From Gemmatimonadota bacterium (GTDB lineage: Bacteria > Gemmatimonadota > Gemmatimonadetes > Gemmatimonadales > GWC2-71-9): a stretch of DNA of 64,000 nt. The first letter of the stretch is position 1; every line of letters begins with the position of its first letter. The notes beneath the pieces are model-generated. The model was not told the DNA's origin and ran no database searches. It saw only the letters and a program-made list of their open reading frames with translations. Location of the stretch: positions 2,064 through 66,063 of the forward strand of contig JBDGZZ010000002.1 of assembly GCA_039588335.1 (NCBI GenBank). The letters run 5' to 3'. Positions 7,311 through 17,484 of the stretch are shown here, in pieces. The translations under genes and the position numbers were made by a program.

Positions 7311-7327
7311 GCTGGCAACCCCGTTAC

Positions 7328-7359
7328 AAAAAAGGCGCGCCCTTCGGGGCGCACCTTTT
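7328..7359 (-). terminator. rho-independent terminator (bidirectional shape, stronger on minus strand)
   Basis: GGUGCGCCC-CGAA-GGGCGCGCC hairpin (one G:U) followed by UUUUUU on the minus strand. On the plus strand it is followed by only UUUU. Confidence 0.7.
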
Positions 7360-7527
7360 GATGTTTCCAAGTGCGGAACGAAGAGTATTATTGAAGCCCG
7401 AATCAATACGGCCCGTGTCCTAGCTGCAACATCTGCCTTCCCAATCTCAGGGCATGACATTGGCAGCAGCAAGCGGACACGCATTCGAGCTTGTTGGCTC
7501 AATAATGTCTCTCTTCGCCCCGCTTAT
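7328..7527 (-). ncRNA. candidate ~200-nt small RNA (promoter-to-terminator unit without a credible ORF)
   Basis: Bounded by a near-consensus promoter (7534..7562) and the terminator at 7328..7359. The only long frame reads through the terminator hairpin. An extended hairpin is possible at 7415..7480 (GUGUCC..GCUGC-UGCC / GGCA..GCAGC..GGACAC). Confidence 0.3.
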
Positions 7528-7533
7528 ATTGCG

Positions 7534-7562
7534 AATATAGACGTAGTGCAGAATAGCGTCAA
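7534..7562 (-). promoter_or_regulatory. near-consensus sigma70-type promoter (minus strand)
   Basis: Minus strand reads TTGACG-ctattctgcactacgtc(17)-TATATT, inside a locally AT-rich stretch. Confidence 0.5.
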
Positions 7563-7591: not shown

Positions 7592-7744
7592 ATGAACTTC
7601 AACTACCTGGGTGCCTCATTCAGTATTCTATTGTGGATGTATTTGCTATTCATTGCAGCGGTACCGAGTGGCTGGGTTCATCTACTTCTGGCCGTCGGTG
7701 TGGTCCTTGTGGCTAGAGGTATAGTTAATGAGAAGAAGAAGTGA
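7592..7744 (+). CDS. small two-helix membrane protein (50 aa; resembles the lmo0937/DUF5670-type small membrane protein family)
   Basis: Below the ORF-track length cutoff. ATG preceded by GGGGGAAAGCA. Translation is MNFNYLGASFSILLWMYLLFIAAVPSGWVHLLLAVGVVLVARGIVNEKKK: two hydrophobic helices and a basic tail. Confidence 0.5.
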   Translation: MNFNYLGASFSILLWMYLLFIAAVPSGWVHLLLAVGVVLVARGIVNEKKK

Positions 7745-8719
7745 TCAGATTTCCCAATTCGAGAAGAGCACCTCGCCAGCCTGCGGGATCGGCTCGGGAT
7801 ACCCGATCAAGGTCATGCGGAGATCGGTCCAACGCACTTGGTACCCCAACCTGATCAGGGCTTCGAAGGCATCTCCGAAGGCGGTTTGACACCTGATGGC
7901 CACGTTAGGTATTCGCGCTTTGGCAGCACACTGTTCCAAGGCTACAACGAGCTTCTCAAGAGTAGCAACTGAGTCGCCAAACAGCTTTAGTACGCGGAGC
8001 TCGTCCTTGGAACGGCTCTGTGCCAGCGGCGCAGAATGCCACAGTGCGAACCCAGCGATTTCTCCGTTCTCCTCGATGACCGTTGTGTCACCGATTGCCA
8101 GCTCCGCAGTCAGCTCCAACTCTCGCGTGAAATCGAAGCCGCTTGCTACTCGGTCCAGGCGCTGACGGCAGCGTTCGATGAGTTCAGCCCTGTGCTGATG
8201 TGGAACATCACTCAAACACCGGAATTCAACTGAGGCGCCCTTGCGCTGCGCATCACCGGTCATGGTCATTGTCAGATACTGCGGTGCAAATCCCAGTTGG
8301 CCATAGAAACCAATGTTCTCGACGGTGCGCGGCATGGTCTCCAGGCCCAAGGTGGTCACACCAGCATTCTTCAACCATTCCATGGCCGTGCTGACTATGG
8401 TCTTCCCAACGCCGAGTCCTTGCCGATCCGCTCTGACAGCGAGTGGACCCATCCAGCCCTCGACACCTGAGTGATGAGCGATATTGAATGCCACCAACTC
8501 ATCACGCTGGTCGAACCAGAGCATCGCACCCTTCCCTGCATCGCTAATCGCATATTGCCAAATAGTGGCATTGAGCTGTGGTACGCGTACACCCACAAGG
8601 CCATCACGCCTGTACCGGTCGGTAAAGGAATCCGAGAACAACCGGTTCAGGGCCGGTACATCAGCCGTCTTAGGTCGCCTAGGACCGCTCAGTCCCTGAG
8701 CTAGCCGCCGAGCGTTCAC
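7745..8719 (-). CDS. GNAT family N-acetyltransferase (two GNAT-like halves)
   Basis: Acetyl-CoA motif RQGLGVGKTIVSTAMEWLKNAG...GFYGQLGF. The second half is also GNAT-like. 4-nt overlap with the sbcC stop. Confidence 0.8.
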   Translation of the reverse strand: MNARRLAQGLSGPRRPKTADVPALNRLFSDSFTDRYRRDGLVGVRVPQLNATIWQYAISDAGKGAMLWFDQRDELVAFNIAHHSGVEGWMGPLAVRADRQGLGVGKTIVSTAMEWLKNAGVTTLGLETMPRTVENIGFYGQLGFAPQYLTMTMTGDAQRKGASVEFRCLSDVPHQHRAELIERCRQRLDRVASGFDFTRELELTAELAIGDTTVIEENGEIAGFALWHSAPLAQSRSKDELRVLKLFGDSVATLEKLVVALEQCAAKARIPNVAIRCQTAFGDAFEALIRLGYQVRWTDLRMTLIGYPEPIPQAGEVLFSNWEI

Positions 8720-11130
8720 GGGGTCGGAATTCCTCCGTCCTCCGTTACCAAGGCCATGCTCTGATTCGTATCATACTCGACTCTCATCACGCGATCGACA
8801 CCCTCCTTCACGGTCTCTATATGGGTTATCAAAATCACTTGGGGGAAGCGTCCGGCCAATCCCCGTAAGAGATCGACAACATTGTAACGACGACTCTCAT
8901 CGAGACCGCCGAAAATCTCGTCAAGCACGAGCAGAGACAATGGTTGGCCAGCACGCTCAGCTACCATCTGGCTGATACTCAGACGCAGTACCAAGTTGAC
9001 CAAATCTTCTTCACCCCCCGAGATCACAGGTTTTGGGACGCCGCTCTCCAGTACCAGGGAGTGGTACTGCTCATCCAGTTCGATCTCGTCGTACCGAGCA
9101 TCGGTCAAATCCGACATAAACGTCGAAGCCCGTTCAGCAATCTCAGGGCGCATCGCTGCGTTCAGTTCCATCCTGAGGTCATGCAAGCCACGATCAAGCT
9201 CATCGTGCAACCGGAGATCGGCCTTGATCTGCTGTACACGTTCCTCACTTTCCTTTCGCTCTCGAAGGCGACGTTGGGCTTGGTCGCGACCCGCCTCTGC
9301 TGCCTTTACATCTCCCTGGACTGTGGCCGCTTCCAATTCCGCTTCCCGCAGCACTGCTTCCGCATTCTCATACCGGGCCCGGGCTTCCACGAACTTCTCC
9401 TCGCTGTATCCAAGGCCTTCCATCGACGCCTTGAGTCGTTCAAGCCTCTCTTCCAGACTCGAAAGCTTCTTCTCTGCAGTTTCGGCCTCTCCAACCAATC
9501 GCTCGGCCCGCTCTGCCTTCACATTCAACTCCACCCCTTTCTTACGCACCGGCTCCAAAACGCGAAGCTGTGTACGCACCGCGTCGTGCGTCTCAGCATC
9601 ATACGCATCTGGCAGCTCTGCAATCTCGGCCTGCAAGGCTGACTCCCGCTCCTGCAACCGGCGCAGTTCCTTCTCTCCTTCCTCCTGCTCGCGCGCGCGA
9701 TCCTCACAGCGAGCGACCTCCTGCACTGCGGCCTCTACCCTACCGCCGCTGTCTTCAAGTCGACTCCGGGCGTCTTTGAGTTCCTGAGGCTCCTCACTCA
9801 GTTGGCTCACTCTCTGCTTGAAATACTTCCCGTCGATCTCGATCTCTTCCAGTTGCTGGTCAATGGAGTTGAGCACCGTCTCATACTCCCGGTCCAGTGG
9901 TCGCGTGCACGTAGGGCACGTCCCGTCAGGCCCGGCTTCGACGATCCGCTCACGCTGCTTCTGAAGATCGCGATATTGATCGCGCAGAGATTGCCGTTTG
10001 GTGTCCGCGTCCTGCTTGTCTCTGATCCACGCCGTATGGGCCTTCTTTTCGTCCACCTCCGCCTGTCCCTGCTCCTGCCGCGCGGAATCGAGAGATTCCT
10101 TGACAGCGCTCAGCACTTGTGCCGTGTCTCCGATCTCTTGTACCCGCTGCCTCATTCTGGAAGTCTGCTCCCTGACCTCCCTGACTTGCCCGGTGAGATC
10201 GCGCCGTTTGCCGGCGGCCTGCGCTTCTTTTTCCAGTCGTTCCAGCTCATCTGTCAACGGAGTAACACGGTCCAACTCGGGTGCCATGCTCTCTAGTTGA
10301 CTCCTCGCATCGAGCGCCTCAGCCAACTCCTTGTCCAGTCGTTCGAATTCACGGCGCGCCTCTCCGACGTCACGTTCCGCAACCCGTAGTTCGCTGTCCA
10401 GTGACAAGACCGACTCACGGACCTCGACCATCTTGGTCCACGCCGGCCCTTCCTGCTCCAATAGTCTGGCTGCTTGCCCCTTCGCCCTCGATGCGCTTTT
10501 GGCACGACGAGTGGCTTCGGCCACTCGGGTCACCGCGCTTTCTAACTCCTCGATCAGCTCTTTCTCGTCACCCAAGCCCGTTTCGAGGCCCGTCAGCTCC
10601 GCGCGGCTGCTCGAGCGGTTAGCGCGCAGCTTGTCCTGAGCCAGCTTGATCTTGTCATACCCCAACACCCGCGACAGAAACCGTGCGCGCTCGCTGGGTC
10701 CCAATTGGCCCATCACGGCGAGTTCCTTTTGGCCCGTGAAGTAGGTGTTGAAGAACTCGTCCCGCGTCATGCCAAGAGTTCGAGTGACCTGAGAAGTAAC
10801 CTCCTGCTGGGAATTGGCGATCGGTGCTTCTTGCCCATCCTGAAACAGCTCAGCGTTGTACAGACCGCGCACCACTCGGAACTCGTGCTGACCGATGGCG
10901 AAATCCACCTCTACCCGAACCTGAGAGCGGGCTGGCGCACCGTAACGCCGGATTGTGTCACGACTTCCACGCGCGGCCGGATTGCCGTAGAAGGCCCAGG
11001 CAATGGCCTCCAGCAGAGTCGTTTTGCCAGAGCCGTTTGGCCCTACAATTGCCGTGATCCCGGGGCCCAGGACGAGTTCGGTCTCGGCATGTTGTCTGAA
11101 GTTGACCAGCCTCAAACGGTGAAGCTGCAT
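8716..11130 (-). CDS. sbcC: SbcC/Rad50-family ATPase (exonuclease SbcCD subunit C)
   Basis: N-terminal LRLVNFRQH...IVGPNGSGKTTLLEAI (Walker A). Long coiled coil with a CPTC zinc hook. C-terminal LSGGEE-like signature and LLVLDEIFGGLD Walker B. Confidence 0.85.
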   Translation of the reverse strand: MQLHRLRLVNFRQHAETELVLGPGITAIVGPNGSGKTTLLEAIAWAFYGNPAARGSRDTIRRYGAPARSQVRVEVDFAIGQHEFRVVRGLYNAELFQDGQEAPIANSQQEVTSQVTRTLGMTRDEFFNTYFTGQKELAVMGQLGPSERARFLSRVLGYDKIKLAQDKLRANRSSSRAELTGLETGLGDEKELIEELESAVTRVAEATRRAKSASRAKGQAARLLEQEGPAWTKMVEVRESVLSLDSELRVAERDVGEARREFERLDKELAEALDARSQLESMAPELDRVTPLTDELERLEKEAQAAGKRRDLTGQVREVREQTSRMRQRVQEIGDTAQVLSAVKESLDSARQEQGQAEVDEKKAHTAWIRDKQDADTKRQSLRDQYRDLQKQRERIVEAGPDGTCPTCTRPLDREYETVLNSIDQQLEEIEIDGKYFKQRVSQLSEEPQELKDARSRLEDSGGRVEAAVQEVARCEDRAREQEEGEKELRRLQERESALQAEIAELPDAYDAETHDAVRTQLRVLEPVRKKGVELNVKAERAERLVGEAETAEKKLSSLEERLERLKASMEGLGYSEEKFVEARARYENAEAVLREAELEAATVQGDVKAAEAGRDQAQRRLRERKESEERVQQIKADLRLHDELDRGLHDLRMELNAAMRPEIAERASTFMSDLTDARYDEIELDEQYHSLVLESGVPKPVISGGEEDLVNLVLRLSISQMVAERAGQPLSLLVLDEIFGGLDESRRYNVVDLLRGLAGRFPQVILITHIETVKEGVDRVMRVEYDTNQSMALVTEDGGIPTP

Positions 11131-12321
11131 CTATTCCTCCAGCGCATCCCGCTCGACCTCATCGAGATAACGACTTGCCAGCCCGACCAAATCTTCTCGC
11201 TCCACCTCGGCAGTGAGAGTGCGCCGCGACAGGTAGTCCCGCACCAACTCTGCGAGAGTCTGCCTATGTCCCGGTGCCCCTACCCCGACTACTCGGGTCG
11301 ACGGTGGACGGCGAATATCGAGGTTATAGTGTAGAGCTTCCGCCTTGGTCTCCCTGATCTGTCGATGGTCCATCTCACGAGCGATCGGCCTCGGCACATC
11401 GTGCACCACCTGACGCACGATGTTGTTGGAAATACCACCCGACACCCCACCGAGCCGTTGGGCGATCGCCCGGTCCAAATCGGCCGCACCCAGCCCCTCA
11501 CCTTGAATCGGCTCCAGGTCGATCAGATCGCGCGCCAAGGGTACCGGTCGAAATCCCACTTCGAGTTTATCACCGCCAATCTCTACCAAGAGCCAACCCT
11601 TCTTGCCTCTGCGTCCTTCACGCCCTTCGTCAATGAGTTCCCCCCACGGGTTGGTGCTCACGTAGTCCAATGCTCCCGAGTACCATGCGTTGGCGGCAAT
11701 CGGCCGCGCGACGTGATAGTGACCCATGGCCACATAATCCCAGGTATCCACATGCATGTCCCCGGGTTCAATCACAACACCGCCGTACTCGAGTGCCGAG
11801 GATTCGCGTGACAGGACACCCGCAATCTCTCCGTGCATCACCAGAACCTTGTGCCTGAGAGGCGCCTGCGGTTGCGAGATACATGTTGCTGAAGCAAGCA
11901 ACGCTGCGTGGGGAACACAGACCATAGAGAGATCCAGGTCCTCGAACGTCAGCTCCCGAGCGTCCCCGGCCACCACATACACTCCATTCAATGCCTCGAA
12001 CAGCTTGAGGATCGTCCCGGTCTCCACCGATCTGGGTGTGTCGTGGTTACCGGCCACAATGACCACGGGACTCTTGGGAAGGCCAGTGCGCATGCGTCGC
12101 AACTGGTTGAATGCGTGCAGGATAGCTGCGTTCGTAGGACGAACCGAGTGGAACAGATCTCCGGCAAACACCACCACGTTCGGTTTGGCTTCCACAACAT
12201 CATCTACTGCTCGAGTGAACGCCTGGGCAACGTCCGCTTCACGCTGGTTGATTCCTCTCGGCGTCTGGCGGTAGTACTGCCGGAAGCCAAGATGCAGATC
12301 GGCCAGGTGGGCGAGCTTCAC
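11131..12321 (-). CDS. sbcD: SbcD/Mre11-family nuclease (exonuclease SbcCD subunit D)
   Basis: Calcineurin-like phosphoesterase motifs HLADLHLG, FAGDLFH, GNHD, MHGE. Directly abuts the sbcC start. Confidence 0.9.
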   Translation of the reverse strand: MKLAHLADLHLGFRQYYRQTPRGINQREADVAQAFTRAVDDVVEAKPNVVVFAGDLFHSVRPTNAAILHAFNQLRRMRTGLPKSPVVIVAGNHDTPRSVETGTILKLFEALNGVYVVAGDARELTFEDLDLSMVCVPHAALLASATCISQPQAPLRHKVLVMHGEIAGVLSRESSALEYGGVVIEPGDMHVDTWDYVAMGHYHVARPIAANAWYSGALDYVSTNPWGELIDEGREGRRGKKGWLLVEIGGDKLEVGFRPVPLARDLIDLEPIQGEGLGAADLDRAIAQRLGGVSGGISNNIVRQVVHDVPRPIAREMDHRQIRETKAEALHYNLDIRRPPSTRVVGVGAPGHRQTLAELVRDYLSRRTLTAEVEREDLVGLASRYLDEVERDALEE

Positions 12322-12325
12322 CGGA

Positions 12326-13159
12326 CTATGGCTTCACCTGGTAGCGGGTCGTGGACTCCGATCTGAGTTCGTTCCCCCCTCCTCCAGGTACGCCTTCCTG
12401 TCCCGCCTCTCGTACCATAGTCATGCGGGTCCTGCTCACACCGGACACGAACCCGTTCCACGACGTCGACCAAATGAGGTTTCCAGCCAGATCTCCTGAA
12501 AGAACCACCCTGCCCGGTCCAAGCTCGTCCACAAAGGTGGCCGCTGGGAACCGTCCGGTCACAGTCACATATCCTAGAGTGTCCCTCGATCTGATCACTA
12601 TGCTATCCAGCACTAGTTGCGCCGTGCCATTCACAGTGGGTGGCACGGTTTCGTTGCGCAGTCCAGGCACGGCAGATGTTATCGTGGGGCTCGACCAGCC
12701 ATCGCCTGCTTCGAGGGGATCTCCAGGCAACTCGAGGTCAGGAATCCCGGTCAAGATCCGCTGCAGACTGGTAACACCAGGAAGTCTCTGACCGTAGTTG
12801 GATTGCTGCACGCGCATCTGCTCATCCATGGTGACCTGGACCCAGGCCGAATCTGCACCGGGTACCTCAAATTCGCGCCACCTGCCGTCTGAGCCGCGTG
12901 ATCTGGTTGTGACGGATTCATAGGCAAGGTGGGATATCCGCATTTCGCCCGGGCCCGCCAGGGCAACTGTGCGCACCACCCCACCATCTGCGCTCTCGAA
13001 ACGCTTTCCATCGAACGCCCAGACGGTGGTGGCTGTGGTGAACTCGGCCCTTATCACCGTTCCCGGTCGCGGCCTGTGGCGAAGCAGGAGAGTCTCCTGC
13101 GCCATCGTGGGCGCCGGAACGAAAGCGCCGGCCAGGATTACGAAGATCATCCTCCTCAC
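12326..13159 (-). CDS. secreted protein of unknown function (paralog of 13156..14046)
   Basis: N-terminal signal peptide MRRMIFVILAGAFVPAPTMA-QE. Shares blocks with the upstream gene (LDSIVIRSRDTLGYVTVTGRF; IWSTSWNGFVSGVSRT). Confidence 0.6.
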   Translation of the reverse strand: MRRMIFVILAGAFVPAPTMAQETLLLRHRPRPGTVIRAEFTTATTVWAFDGKRFESADGGVVRTVALAGPGEMRISHLAYESVTTRSRGSDGRWREFEVPGADSAWVQVTMDEQMRVQQSNYGQRLPGVTSLQRILTGIPDLELPGDPLEAGDGWSSPTITSAVPGLRNETVPPTVNGTAQLVLDSIVIRSRDTLGYVTVTGRFPAATFVDELGPGRVVLSGDLAGNLIWSTSWNGFVSGVSRTRMTMVREAGQEGVPGGGGNELRSESTTRYQVKP

Positions 13160-14046
13160 ATTCGCACCTGTGAAAGCGTGGTCACATCGAATCGTACATG
13201 CGTTACCGCATTGCCGTCGGCTGGGTCAGAGCGTATGTCCATCAAGATTACGGCACGCGTGGCGCCTGATACGAAAGCACTCCAGGCGGTCGACCAGACC
13301 ATCATCGCAGCCAGCGACCCGCCAGCCGTCACCGAAGCAGACTCCCCACCAGCGGAGGCCGGTAACACTGTGGACATGAAGTTGCCACGGGCAGTAACAT
13401 AGTACAGCGTATCGGCTGGTCGGGTTACCACGCTATCCAGCGTGGCCGTGGCCTCTGAGCGAAGCTCGCCACCCACCGGAACGCCATCTTCTCGGCCAAT
13501 TGCTGCAAACGCATTGAGTGGATATGAAAGATCCGCTGTCCAGGATGCACCAACGGGAATCGGTGTTTCCGGTAGAGTCAGCAGGTGTCCACCGCCCAAG
13601 CCCCTGGCCATCTGTCCGTTCGTTGCCTGCAAATGAGGCATGTCCACGAACTCCGCTTCAAGCACCTCGAGCCTGTCGGTCAATACTGCTCGGACCAGGC
13701 CGAGTTCTCCAGCCTCGGCCATCACGTCACGCCACGCACCTCCCACCGGTCTCAAACGGGCTCGCAGTGAATCATAGTGCAGTTCCACCAGGTATCGATC
13801 GTCGGCTTGGGCGTCGAAGAACTGGGTCATGCCCTCCAGGCGACTTGCCTCGACGGACAGCGGAGCGCCACCACCCGGCTCCTGCGTAACCGTCATGAGA
13901 ATGTCGCTGCGCGAGATCGTGTGGATCCTGATGGGTGCTCGAGGAGCGTATCGCAAGCTGTAACTCACCTGGGCGCCCGCGCGTTCGCTCGCTGACGTAG
14001 CTAGAACACAGACGGCTGACAGAAGCGTCAACACTCTACGGAGCAT
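13156..14046 (-). CDS. secreted protein of unknown function (paralog of 12326..13159)
   Basis: Signal peptide MLRRVLTLLSAVCVLATSASERAGA-QV. Shared blocks LDSVVTRPADTLYYVTARGNF and VWSTAWSAFVSGATRA. Overlaps both neighbouring genes. Confidence 0.6.
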   Translation of the reverse strand: MLRRVLTLLSAVCVLATSASERAGAQVSYSLRYAPRAPIRIHTISRSDILMTVTQEPGGGAPLSVEASRLEGMTQFFDAQADDRYLVELHYDSLRARLRPVGGAWRDVMAEAGELGLVRAVLTDRLEVLEAEFVDMPHLQATNGQMARGLGGGHLLTLPETPIPVGASWTADLSYPLNAFAAIGREDGVPVGGELRSEATATLDSVVTRPADTLYYVTARGNFMSTVLPASAGGESASVTAGGSLAAMMVWSTAWSAFVSGATRAVILMDIRSDPADGNAVTHVRFDVTTLSQVRM

Positions 14047-15979
14047 AGGGGTCCTCCACCGGCTTCAACCGGGTTGCACCTCCGGTTTCGTGACGCACCG
14101 TTTCACGAGTCACAGCCGAACCGAGAGCCGCCCTGAAGTAGCCGAGCATGTCGTCTGGCTGGGCTCGTCTTGTAGCGAGCAAGGCGCGCCGCACGTCCTG
14201 ATCTCTATGACCTGCGATTATCTCTTTGATTTGGCCAGGCACAACCCGTCGGTCCATTGCCACCAACTGCCGCACCACCGCTTCCTCGAATTCCACGTCC
14301 TTGGCGGGCGGGAATTGCTGGATCCCTGCCGGCCCCGTCAAAGTCGGCGGTCGTGGGAACCGCACGAAGACCGGCTGCGTGAAATGCGGGTGTCGCACCA
14401 TCAGCTCGCCTTTTGGCAGCGTCGCTAGTTTGATCTTCGTAGCAGGCGAGAGTACCTGGTAGCCAGGCGTTGCCAGTTCGTCCATGTCCATGCGTCCAAA
14501 CAGGGTAGTGCCCGCGTTGCCCACCACACGCCGGTGCACTTGGGATCGAAACTGTTGCGCGCCGAAGAGTACGAGTCCCAGGTACCGACCGCGCTCAGAG
14601 ATGTCCAGCAGCATCTTGCGTACATAGGTCTCGGGACCGTCGCCCGGCGCATACTTGTTGAGTTCGTCCACGAATACGACCACATGATCAACTCCCAGGT
14701 CCCGCCGCTCCAGGTGCTCACGAAGTTTCGACACTACACGTGTGAAAACCAGGTCCTGGGCGAGTTGATCCATACCCGCTACGTCAAGGACGTAGACCGA
14801 GCGATTCTCGAACATGCCGAATGGCAAGTCACTAACTGAGCCATCGTCTGTTACCAACCCCTTACATCTTGTGGAGATGTTGAGCAACCGATTGCGAACT
14901 TTCCGTATGGTAGCGATGTGATGGGTGCGCCACATATCACTACGGCCGGTCGATTCCAGACCTTCGAAGATGGCACGGAAAAGCCGTTCCAAGTCCGAGA
15001 AAGTCCGTACCCGATGTGTTCCACCCCATTCGTCGCTGAATTCCTTCTCCACCACACGGTCGGTCAGAAAATCGATGAACGCGTCGGACTTGGCATCGAT
15101 GTCGTCGCGGTTGAGTAGGACCTCATGATAGTCCAACACCTCCCTTAGCCCCCACACGAGCGGCTGGACCGATCCCATCAGGTCGTGGTGCGTCCTCAAC
15201 GTGTTGAGGTTCACGCCATCGGCCTTGAACGGGGCGTAATAGTGCACACTCTCGAACGGCCGTGGGTCGATGCCCAGCAGGTCGTACATCTCGCGGTCCA
15301 CATCCGTCAGTTCGCCAGGCTGATCCAGGAAACACAGGTCCGGACCCTTAACATTGACACAGACTGCGGCGACGCTTCCCTTGTGTTCCGGAAACTTCTG
15401 AAAGATGCTAGTGAGAAAGAACTCTACGGCGCTGGTCTTCGTGGCCAACCCCGACACTCCCGAGATGTTCAGGTGTGCCGACTCCGGACCGAGCAAGAAA
15501 TCGGCATCGAGGAACACTGGCGCGCTCATCCCTCCACCTGTGTAGAGACCAACCGGCACTCCACACGGCCGATCTCCCCGGACATAGGTGTCCATTCGCA
15601 GGGCGATCTCCACATCTTCTCGAGTCGCCAACCTCACTTCTGCCAATGGAACTGGCTGGAGTGGTTCCTCCGGTTGCTGACGCAACACAGCGGCAGTCCA
15701 CAGTCGAATCTCTGTTCGCCTTGTCGGCGCGCGGGCCCCGGATGGGTCACCCTCGGCTGCGACAACGTCGTCCAACGGAGTGGCCAGATCCGAATAGGAG
15801 CGTCCGTCCACGACTACCGCGTAAACCCGCCGACCGCCTTCATCTAACACGCGGACAATCGCGCCGATGCCCAGAGTCGTGTCGGTAGCGGTCCAGAAGT
15901 GGAACTGGTGTGGTCCCGCGGGCAACGACTCCGTCGCGACGACCCGACCAACCGCAGAACCATCATCGAACCGAATCAC
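14036..15979 (-). CDS. herA: HerA/FtsK-like hexameric ATPase (HAS-barrel + P-loop domain)
   Basis: The N-terminal barrel-like region (GRVVATE...FHFW...IGAIVRV) resembles a HAS barrel. Walker B is HVVVFVDELNKYAP, with a GLVLFGAQQF sensor-like block. The P-loop is atypical (ISGVSGLATKTS). I prefer the GTG at 15979 (GTGA overlap with the nurA stop, GGAGG upstream) over the track start at 15985. Confidence 0.7.
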   Translation of the reverse strand: MIRFDDGSAVGRVVATESLPAGPHQFHFWTATDTTLGIGAIVRVLDEGGRRVYAVVVDGRSYSDLATPLDDVVAAEGDPSGARAPTRRTEIRLWTAAVLRQQPEEPLQPVPLAEVRLATREDVEIALRMDTYVRGDRPCGVPVGLYTGGGMSAPVFLDADFLLGPESAHLNISGVSGLATKTSAVEFFLTSIFQKFPEHKGSVAAVCVNVKGPDLCFLDQPGELTDVDREMYDLLGIDPRPFESVHYYAPFKADGVNLNTLRTHHDLMGSVQPLVWGLREVLDYHEVLLNRDDIDAKSDAFIDFLTDRVVEKEFSDEWGGTHRVRTFSDLERLFRAIFEGLESTGRSDMWRTHHIATIRKVRNRLLNISTRCKGLVTDDGSVSDLPFGMFENRSVYVLDVAGMDQLAQDLVFTRVVSKLREHLERRDLGVDHVVVFVDELNKYAPGDGPETYVRKMLLDISERGRYLGLVLFGAQQFRSQVHRRVVGNAGTTLFGRMDMDELATPGYQVLSPATKIKLATLPKGELMVRHPHFTQPVFVRFPRPPTLTGPAGIQQFPPAKDVEFEEAVVRQLVAMDRRVVPGQIKEIIAGHRDQDVRRALLATRRAQPDDMLGYFRAALGSAVTRETVRHETGGATRLKPVEDPYAP

Positions 15980-16869
15980 AACCACCCTCCAACCTGAGTT
16001 CGCAGATAAGCCTCCACCTGGCGAATTGGATAGATGAGCCGATCCCAGCGGCCGTCGGGAGCCGAGAGTGGTGCGCGCTCTGACAACATCCAGCCACTGA
16101 TCTCCGTTGCCTCAGTCCCCACCTGGTCCACCGGGCAACGCTCCAACCGAATGAGCCCGTGCAGCAGATCGTATTCCTCCCAGGGCCACAACCGAAGATA
16201 CCATGTGTGGACATCCTCATGCACACGACTGCCACGGGCGAAGACGCTGGTGCGGAAACCAACGGGCAGCGTCAGGGCAGTCGTCATCTCACTCCCTTGG
16301 AGAAACTGCGTTTCATGACTCTTCACGATTCCTAACAGGCGCTTCGCGTGTTGGTCTCCTGCCAACTCAGCAATGGAGCCGTCCACCACCAACCACCCGT
16401 CTCTGCTGGACGCGAGGTATTCCCGAGCGACCCTCGCTTCAATCTCCTCCCGACATCGCTCCACCACACCCGCTGCGAGATGCACGTCGAGGATCGGATG
16501 CTCGCGGTCACTCTCACCACTGTCGAAGAGCTGAATGTCAGTCTGCTGCAAACGGCTAATCTGACCATCTGTGAGTCGGTTCAACGGAACTGCAATGAGT
16601 TCTTGAGATCGGTGCAGTTCAACCACCAGCGTCTCATCGCGGCGGCTCATGACGGCAGCGGAAACATAGCCGCGGACGACGGGCACGAGACCGAACCGCC
16701 CTATAACTGAATAGCGCTGGATCCCATCCATGAAGCCTGTGCCGAAGGGGGGAACCCGGATGCCACCAACGTCGATAGCCCGGACTACCTCATGTTCAAC
16801 GGGTGCCGCCGTGCCAAAGGGGGTCCGTAACGGCTGGGGCACGTGCGTGAGCACTCCTGTGCTGCCCAC
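15976..16869 (-). CDS. nurA: NurA-like nuclease
   Basis: WLVVDGSIAEL...LLGIVKSHETQFL resembles the NurA DGS...G(V/I)xKS blocks. GTG start with GGAGG 5 nt upstream. Sits immediately upstream of, and overlapping, herA. Confidence 0.5.
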   Translation of the reverse strand: MGSTGVLTHVPQPLRTPFGTAAPVEHEVVRAIDVGGIRVPPFGTGFMDGIQRYSVIGRFGLVPVVRGYVSAAVMSRRDETLVVELHRSQELIAVPLNRLTDGQISRLQQTDIQLFDSGESDREHPILDVHLAAGVVERCREEIEARVAREYLASSRDGWLVVDGSIAELAGDQHAKRLLGIVKSHETQFLQGSEMTTALTLPVGFRTSVFARGSRVHEDVHTWYLRLWPWEEYDLLHGLIRLERCPVDQVGTEATEISGWMLSERAPLSAPDGRWDRLIYPIRQVEAYLRTQVGGWL

Positions 16870-16965: not shown

Positions 16966-17484
16966 TCACTTGGCACGCCCCGAATCGGGGAACGGCGGAA
17001 CATCCATCAGCCAGAATCCGGCAAGTTGGCCGTCGCCGTCCAGGTCAACGATCAGGTTCTCGGCCAGCGCGACGCTGTCCACTCGACGTGAATTGCTCAA
17101 GATGAGATGGATCGTAGACTTGTCGCCAGTCCTCTCGCACGCGAGAGGCACCTTGAGTTCAGCCACGCCACCCCTGTGTTCGTCGGCATCTGCAGTGACC
17201 ACCAGACAGCCATTCCTCGCGGTCTCCGGAGGCTTCAACTCGGCGACGGTATTGCCTTTGGGCCAAACCACGACTTCGATGCCGTTCAAGACCTGGCCCG
17301 CCAAGCCCAACGAGACGAAGCATCCACCGGCACCGCCGAGTTCGATCGTGCCGTCCGGCTCGGAACTTCCGGCCGGCCCCGGCATCGCAGCGGCCAGAAT
17401 CTCAGTGTCGAAGTTCCACTGAAACTCCACTCGCGGTAACCCGCCTTGGATCGGCGTAACTTGCGCAACGAGTGTCATGACCAA
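16966..17484 (-). CDS. hypothetical protein (two DUF2283-like modules?)
   Basis: 172 aa. ENLIVDLDGDGQLAGFWL and GQVLNGIEVVVWP resemble the D.d.dG.lvGiEi signature of DUF2283. This assignment is weak. Confidence 0.35.
   Translation of the reverse strand: MVMTLVAQVTPIQGGLPRVEFQWNFDTEILAAAMPGPAGSSEPDGTIELGGAGGCFVSLGLAGQVLNGIEVVVWPKGNTVAELKPPETARNGCLVVTADADEHRGGVAELKVPLACERTGDKSTIHLILSNSRRVDSVALAENLIVDLDGDGQLAGFWLMDVPPFPDSGRAK

Follow-up and report, generated by a model that had tools for sequence, protein, structure and literature searches.

A window of 64,000 nucleotides (nt) from a Gemmatimonadota bacterium (assembly GCA_039588335.1, contig JBDGZZ010000002.1, positions 2,064 to 66,063; "the window" always means this whole stretch) carries seven consecutive open reading frames (ORFs) on its minus strand at 7745-16869, and every junction between them is either an overlap or a gap of 4 nt or less. 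The products are predicted NurA-, HerA-, Mre11- and Rad50-type proteins, two exported paralogs that we call X1 and X2, and a GNAT acetyltransferase (Table 1). An earlier reading made from the DNA letters alone (the sequence-only reading) had described seven minus-strand genes packed in this way, and inspection of the coordinates and junctions confirmed it. Based on the comparisons below, the operon is predicted to join a Deinococcus-Thermus-type NurA-HerA pair to an archaeal-like Mre11-Rad50 pair, with a RimI-like GNAT protein as a fixed fifth member.

Table 1. Features at and around the seven-gene locus. Positions refer to the window, except in the last row, which names loci of relatives; aa, amino acids.
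Feature	Product and size	Positions	Strand	Remark
nurA	predicted NurA-family nuclease, 297 aa	15976-16869	minus	first tightly coupled gene
herA	predicted bacterial-type HerA/HepA hexameric ATPase-translocase, 647-649 aa	14036-15985	minus	matches D. radiodurans HerA (DrHerA)
X1	predicted exported protein with Sec-type signal peptide, divergent DUF6263-like, 296 aa	13156-14046	minus	
X2	predicted exported paralog of X1, 277 aa	12326-13159	minus	similar to X1
mre11/sbcD	predicted Mre11-type nuclease, 396 aa	11131-12321	minus	Metallophos domain and Mre11 motifs
rad50/sbcC	predicted Rad50-type SMC-like ABC ATPase with central zinc hook, 804 aa	8716-11130	minus	
GNAT	predicted acetyltransferase, RimI/Naa-like N-domain and C-terminal domain without assigned fold, 324 aa	7745-8719	minus	last gene of the coupled run
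172-aa ORF	weak DUF2283 match	16966-17484	minus	upstream of nurA
Downstream RNA	candidate structured non-coding RNA, ~160 nt	7325-7562	minus	between GNAT stop (7745) and folE
50-aa ORF	hydrophobic peptide	7592-7744	plus	convergent with GNAT, stop codons abutting
Second-slot examples	genes between the 172-aa ORF and nurA in relatives	L011 7381-9048; L070 8383-9021; L087-L089		

The 297-aa protein encoded by the first gene has 452 homologs and, searched as a single sequence, gave no match in Pfam, NCBIfam or PADLOC at E<=0.01 and none in the PDB. A profile built from 32 homologs matched two PDB entries and no others, namely D. radiodurans NurA (7f6d_H, E=5e-4) and TM1739 (1zup, E=0.011). The AlphaFold2 (AF2) model (predicted local distance difference test score, pLDDT, 86.4) has the RNase H-like/PIWI-like fold of NurA in Foldseek comparisons. 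NurA structures take the first three places among its PDB matches (7f6d_G, 1.1e-11; 1zup_A, 4.9e-10; 2ygk_A, 9.5e-6), with a probability of 1.0 and template modeling (TM) scores of 0.51-0.60, and they are followed by Argonaute PIWI domains at E>0.01. Across the homolog alignment D163-G-S and H185 are invariant and D48 and E90 nearly so; the DGS segment aligns with 'QDGPV' of D. radiodurans NurA (DrNurA), a correspondence drawn from the alignment. The gene also lies directly upstream of herA and is coupled to it, as expected of nurA. Together these results, with the modeled structure at their center, indicate that the protein belongs to the NurA family and adopts the NurA fold.

The product of the second gene aligns by phmmer with D. 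radiodurans HerA (7f6d_B, E=3.4e-41) over two stretches, residues 10-286 and 320-550, which span the N-terminal and ATPase regions. It shares with DrHerA a variant Walker A-like sequence (GLATKTS at 179-185, GVATKTS in DrHerA) and carries a Walker B motif (VFVDE, 437-441), GAQQ at 475-478 and the arginine-finger region (ERGRYLGLVLFGAQQ). No archaeal HerA was found in the PDB at E<=1, and no Pfam or NCBIfam family, HerA models included, matched at E<=0.01; this bacterial HerA clade is evidently not covered by the Pfam and NCBIfam models. Compared with a 94.7%-identical contig, herA has a nonsynonymous-to-synonymous substitution ratio (dN/dS) of 0.04. By these alignments and motifs the 649-aa protein is assigned as a bacterial-type HerA. 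The sequence-only reading, which had called the two proteins NurA- and HerA-like, had named profile and structure searches as the way in which those assignments could fail; such searches were run, and both assignments withstood them.

The sbcD and sbcC assignments of that reading were likewise borne out by Pfam, NCBIfam and PDB matches and by motifs. The Mre11 candidate contains a Metallophos domain (45 bits against a cut-off of 21.5) and all five expected motifs (DLH 8-10, GDLFH 54-58, GNHD 91-94, MHG 162-164 and GHYH 200-203). Its best NCBIfam model is Mre11_Sulfo (82.6 bits, cut-off 500), ahead of TIGR00619 sbcd (59.3, cut-off 77.65), and its best PDB matches are the M. jannaschii and P. 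furiosus Mre11 proteins (E ~4e-14), then that of T. maritima, all aligning just over the N-terminal ~95-123 residues. We therefore describe it as a divergent member, as judged by scores below the curated Mre11/SbcD cut-offs. The Rad50 candidate matches SMC_N over residues 3-790 (67.4 bits, cut-off 40) as well as AAA_23 and SbcC_Walker_B above their cut-offs. Its split ABC ATPase head (Walker A 30-37, SGGE 704-707, Walker B 733-738, ITH 768-770) encloses a long coiled coil with a CPTC zinc hook at 405-408, in the exact middle of the 804 residues. Here too the archaeal model comes first (PRK03918, 193.5 bits, cut-off 700; TIGR00618 sbcc, 99.8, cut-off 478.5), and the closest structures are again from M. 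jannaschii and P. furiosus, then T. maritima. Archaeal Rad50 and Mre11 models thus outscore the bacterial SbcC and SbcD models, with every score below the equivalog cut-off, and both proteins appear closest to their archaeal counterparts with motifs intact.

An exact-sequence look-up with the window's HerA matched no contig. A genome scan with HerA returned 214 relatives, and the neighborhood results in this study describe the best 80 of them, which are species-level genomes all belonging to Gemmatimonadota. HerA is 70-91% identical across these species. Mapping by tblastn recovered the order nurA-herA-[slot]-mre11-rad50-GNAT in every locus that extended far enough, except L029, and a common set of flanking genes: an S58 peptidase, an aminotransferase and the 172-aa ORF upstream, folE and a short-chain dehydrogenase/reductase gene downstream. 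Contigs with X1 homologs carry the same seven genes and the same flanks. The sequence-only reading had allowed that the genes might stand together by chance in this one genome, and the homolog neighborhoods among these best 80 of 214 relatives instead keep the arrangement. To judge from this comparison, the locus looks like one syntenic chromosomal site holding vertically inherited housekeeping genes, not a mobile defense island.

The nurA GTG start has GGAGG 5 nt ahead of it, and motifs of this ribosome-binding type precede most starts in the run. The longest herA ORF begins with a GTG at 15985 (649 aa, overlapping nurA by 10 nt), and an alternative GTG at 15979 yields 647 aa and a GTGA overlap with nurA; we consider 15979 probably the true start, since GGAGG lies 6 nt upstream of it and gene calls in relatives have the same 647-aa length. 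Next, herA and X1 overlap by 11 nt (ATGCTCCGTAG) with GGAGG upstream of the X1 start, X1/X2 and rad50/GNAT each join through GTGA, X2 and mre11 are 4 nt apart, and the mre11 TAG abuts the rad50 ATG. Related loci are built alike, with nurA/herA at -4 nt in 34 of 36 and mre11/rad50 at -4, -1 or 0 nt in 57 of 63. A consensus scan across the operon found no excess of internal promoter-like sites (6 against 3.0 +/- 1.9 expected, for a sigma-70 consensus that Gemmatimonadota promoters may not fit) or of terminator-like sites (4 against 7.1 +/- 3.0). The sequence-only reading had named internal promoters or terminators separating X1 and X2 from their neighbors as a possible refutation, and neither kind of site was in excess; we infer a single transcript from nurA through GNAT.

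Could the seven genes be mere neighbors in a compact genome rather than an operon? Tight packing is common in this genome, because 9 of the 30 remaining junctions between same-strand genes (~30%, by crude ORF calls) are also <=4 nt in the window. Unrelated genes lie equally close to nurA in relatives, and the nurA-hepA pair of Thermus sits just as tightly among metabolic genes unrelated to it (PMC5448004). But six tight junctions in succession form the longest run in the window, with a chance of ~0.3^6 if junctions were independent, and the coupling is conserved across the phylum. The four core proteins moreover constitute a known functional set, and the scan gave no surplus of internal terminator-like sites. 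Mere adjacency is, on this evidence, extremely unlikely.

The sequence-only reading had also offered a stress or defense module as an explanation. Spelled out further, HerA and the SMC-like nuclease would form an anti-phage or stress-defense system akin to HerA-associated systems or Lamassu, and X1 and X2 could then be sensors at the surface or lipoproteins that mask receptors. Several defense systems include HerA-family ATPases, and like the SMC/ABC ATPases of Lamassu (LmuB) and MADS, our Rad50 matches the PADLOC models for LmuB (E=5e-35) and mad3, while HerA weakly matches mad8 (E=6e-5). These matches seem to be generic cross-hits, however: the protein scores higher with genuine Rad50 models (193 bits), its zinc hook is present and none of its ATPase motifs is missing, a genuine Mre11 stands beside it, and no effector partner was matched in PADLOC. 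Residence at a single syntenic site in 80 species or more, together with the strong HerA conservation and low dN/dS given above, is the opposite of the patchy, mobile distribution of defense islands, and a search of BFVD found no similarity of X to viral or exclusion proteins. We accordingly disfavor the defense module and regard it as very improbable.

The last gene of the run encodes a protein with a single recognizable GNAT domain. Acetyltransf_1 matches residues 58-144 (46.6 bits, cut-off 20.7), the acetyl-CoA motif QGLGVG lies at 100-105, and profile matches in the PDB, to RimI (5isv, 1.2e-7) and Naa30, are confined to residues 14-153. By profile similarity the N-terminal domain is thus RimI-like, resembling protein N-acetyltransferases of the RimI/Naa30 type. 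The protein had been described as a double-GNAT acetyltransferase; one domain is confirmed, whereas a second went undetected in Pfam and PDB profile searches and in an hhalign comparison of the N- and C-terminal halves (E=0.11 over 23 columns). The C-terminal ~160 residues are strongly conserved and give no GNAT signal in profile searches. The gene follows rad50 in all loci that reach it except one, mostly overlapping the rad50 stop codon. In 54 of 66 relatives this overlap is 20 nt when the GNAT frame is projected to the window's start, and in only 6 is it 4 nt, as in the window; clades may use different GNAT starts. In L029 (Baikal-deep-G155), the sole locus in which the rad50-GNAT link is broken, an insertion leaves the GNAT homolog ~4.8 kb downstream of rad50.

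Between herA and mre11 lie X1 and X2, which the sequence-only reading took for paralogs with clear Sec signals. They are 30% identical to each other (E=8e-18), which bears out the first point. The second also stood: both begin with predicted signal peptides of n-h-c architecture, with a basic n-region and a hydrophobic h-region ending in AxA|Q (MLRRVLTLLSAVCVLATSASERAGA|Q in X1, MRRMIFVILAGAFVPAPTMA|Q in X2), and both are kept in orthologs. Signal-peptide-like N-termini were found in 74 of 79 X genes, with classes assigned by a heuristic and direct reading of the sequences. The type of signal changes with lineage, from signal peptidase I type AxA|Q in one clade to a lipobox (L-x-G/A-C) followed by a Gly/Ser-rich linker in the other; the canonical lipobox runs through nearly all of the clade in which single copies and losses both occur. 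Since signals for signal peptidases I and II swap between clades, there is strong evidence, at the level of sequence, that what is conserved in X is export as such.

These observations bear on another explanation, in which the hydrophobic N-termini are mis-called starts or cytoplasm-facing anchors and X1 and X2 act directly with HerA and Mre11. It can draw on the heuristic nature of the export call and on the AF2 model, which renders the X1 N-terminus as a helix. Against this, both paralogs keep the n-h-c pattern with AxA|Q across the clade, the replacement by a lipobox in the sister clade makes sense just for exported proteins, and the starts are fixed by conserved overlaps with upstream stops and by GGAGG motifs. 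We judge uncleaved N-termini of this kind to be highly improbable.

Neither X1 nor X2 reached a Pfam threshold, and single-sequence searches of NCBIfam and PADLOC returned nothing. Within the family, 6 of 31 members matched DUF6263 (PF19777) at E<=1 (best E=1.5e-6), and two relatives, P0202 and P0203, scored 28.8 bits against its cut-off of 26.7 over the C-terminal half. X1 and X2 thus differ from DUF6263 in lying below threshold and in belonging to a small family tied to one operon slot, and to our knowledge DUF6263 has no known function. Searching 1.84 billion representatives with a profile yielded 339 X-family clusters at 50% identity, and the 13 X1 homologs are all from Gemmatimonadota. 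In the X1 AF2 model (pLDDT 86.4) a helix at the N-terminus leads into a long antiparallel beta sheet, and for this model the PDB and BFVD gave generic beta-sheet or barrel matches (TM <=0.39) and no close fold. Weak matches to LmcA, MTP and ApoB hint at a lipid-carrier-like open barrel, which we do not count as a result, and a short RsiG-like Pfam match on one X1 ortholog fell below cut-off and was rejected. Mature X proteins have no cysteines and no consistent charge (median pI 6.7); DNA binding was considered and set aside for want of a consistent basic charge. Both are real genes under purifying selection, as dN/dS is 0.18 for X1 and 0.10 for X2 in the comparison with the 94.7%-identical contig.

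We found that the slot occupied by X1 and X2 varies among relatives. Detected with an X-gene hidden Markov model (HMM), X is present in two copies in 28 loci, one copy in 29 and none in 22. Where X is absent, herA and mre11 directly adjoin, at -1 to +4 nt. Four loci of the group without a full copy (L056, L063, L074 and L081) retain herA-mre11 gaps of 150-300 nt that contain X fragments (HMM E=1e-7 to 1e-10). In L072 the X gene is split across two reading frames. The fragments and the split gene look, from their sequences, like snapshots of ongoing gene loss. On a tree of HerA and Rad50 the two-copy loci group in a single clade, with the window among them, and the sister groups of that clade have a single copy, placing the duplication in the window's clade and nowhere else. 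The second major clade shows a mosaic pattern, with close sisters of which one has a single copy and the other none; the losses were therefore many and independent. With 2, 1 or 0 copies and repeated independent loss, the exported proteins are no fixed part of the resection machinery, which the sequence-only reading had supposed they might elaborate.

A second variable slot lies upstream of nurA. The 172-aa ORF, whose DUF2283 match is weak (E=1e-3), precedes nurA in nearly all loci, and the 96 nt between the two are empty in the window. In some relatives this space holds an exported amidohydrolase and in others an O-methyltransferase, codons of which sometimes overlap those of nurA (examples in Table 1). 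The transcription unit may start upstream of nurA.

Together our results favor, at a probability of about 0.6, a phylum-wide, vertically inherited Gemmatimonadota operon for DNA break-end processing in which X1 and X2 are envelope passengers that share its expression without belonging to the resection complex. The proposed biochemical roles are drawn by analogy from the systems of archaea and D. radiodurans: Mre11-Rad50 would recognize and open the DNA end, and the HerA hexamer would then feed duplex DNA to the NurA dimer for resection. The target of the GNAT enzyme is probably a protein, which may belong to the machine or work alongside it. X1 and X2 are beta-sheet proteins from a family that is small, DUF6263-like and specific to Gemmatimonadota; they would be translated from the operon's mRNA, exported by Sec (in other clades lipid-anchored) and active in the cell envelope, and would be dispensable for the core machine. 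We see X as a long-resident passenger because of its repeated losses, its export signals, the unrelated genes in the second slot and the tight packing of Thermus genes.

Several observations weigh against this account. The window's clade always retains both X copies. All X-family members with readable context (9 independent, the most distant at profile E=6e-18 and 1e-13) lie between herA and mre11, and no copy was found outside the slot in 1.55 Mb of the window and related loci; a true functional partner, too, would be expected to stay in one operon slot throughout a phylum. The single transcript depends in part on a promoter scan with the sigma-70 consensus. Finally, a D. radiodurans NurA-HerA double knockout is ~10-fold more resistant to high-dose UV (PMC9960219), which leaves the in vivo role of bacterial NurA-HerA unsettled.

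The confinement to one slot and the retention of both copies also speak for an opposing explanation, namely that X1 and X2 are true functional partners tying resection to an envelope process, for example the import or export of DNA that serves recombinational repair. An analogy exists in the UV-induced DNA exchange of Sulfolobus. Purifying selection on both genes agrees with such a partnership, as does translational coupling to herA that is itself conserved, the 11-nt overlap recurring in many loci. T. thermophilus mutants in hepA and in TTC_1878, a second NurA homolog, are also defective in transjugation (PMC5448004). Yet X has been lost again and again with the other five genes left intact and coupled, the mature proteins have neither consistent positive charge nor a recognizable DNA-binding or channel fold, and no membrane channel, pilus or competence gene was seen in the conserved neighborhood. 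We consider a partnership of this kind unlikely. A more specific form, in which X is a lineage-specific extension of break repair, periplasmic or anchored in the outer membrane, that couples resection to DNA uptake or hand-over or to the sensing of envelope damage, also seems doubtful to us; if true, it would account for a family that lives just in the herA-mre11 slot. The passenger view of X1 and X2 remains our preference, with a functional link as the minority reading.

How does this operon compare with known ones? In Sulfolobus and Pyrococcus an operon ordered herA-mre11-rad50-nurA serves DNA double-strand-break end resection. The Gemmatimonadota locus resembles it in holding the four protein families in one tightly coupled operon, in the similar size and central CxxC hook of Rad50, and in the archaeal affinity of Mre11 and Rad50 in NCBIfam and the PDB. 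It differs in its order (nurA-herA-...-mre11-rad50), in the bacterial type of HerA and NurA (the latter nearer to DrNurA and TM1739 than to Sulfolobus NurA), in the added GNAT gene and exported-protein slot, and in its host, a mesophilic bacterial phylum. With Deinococcus and Thermus it shares nurA placed ahead of herA (hepA) with overlapping stop and start (PMC9960219, PMC5448004), and its HerA sequence matches DrHerA while its NurA fold matches DrNurA best; in Deinococcus and Thermus, in contrast, the pair is not beside sbcCD. The sequence-only reading had called linkage of all four genes in one bacterial operon much less usual than in archaea. Unusual it is, but a nurA-hepA-sbcD-sbcC linkage, with sbcD-sbcC after hepA as in the window, had already been described in Oceanithermus profundus (PMC5448004). 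No GNAT or exported protein is reported for the Deinococcus, Thermus or Oceanithermus operons, and the conservation seen here is phylum-wide. Among the papers searched, none links Gemmatimonadota with HerA or Rad50 and none mentions DUF6263; the phylum-wide conservation, the fixed GNAT gene and the variable exported-protein slot are new.

Beyond the coupled genes, we observed a candidate structured RNA between GNAT and folE. A promoter-like site of its own (TTGACG-17-TATATT) and a strong terminator accompany it, and its folding energy is -94 kcal/mol (z = -6.9). More than 50 Gemmatimonadota loci carry the element at 70-87% identity, in every case in this position. The consensus is a long irregular hairpin of 39 pairs with 97% of cells paired, and compensatory changes occur at 18 pairs, values reached by 0 of 500 shuffles. 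No Rfam family matched even at E<=5. In the predicted structure its shape, a rod with bubbles, recalls 6S RNA, a candidate likeness only, and as an RNA outside the Rfam families it may be of independent interest. Facing GNAT on the plus strand is a 50-aa hydrophobic ORF (MNFNYLGASFSILLWMYLLFIAAVPSGWVHLLLAVGVVLVARGIVNEKKK), and in three related loci (L001, L002 and L004) a gene of 50-59 aa is called at the same site.

After Oceanithermus, Gemmatimonadota would be the second and a much larger bacterial lineage with the four-gene set held stably in one operon. Given the puzzling phenotypes of the Deinococcus knock-outs, the phylum is a natural place to ask whether bacterial NurA-HerA really cooperates with Mre11-Rad50. 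The RimI-like GNAT protein, always present, suggests that the machinery is tied to an acetylation step that has yet to be studied. Lastly, the exported-protein slot, with zero, one or two copies among close relatives, offers a natural experiment on whether long residency in an operon implies function.

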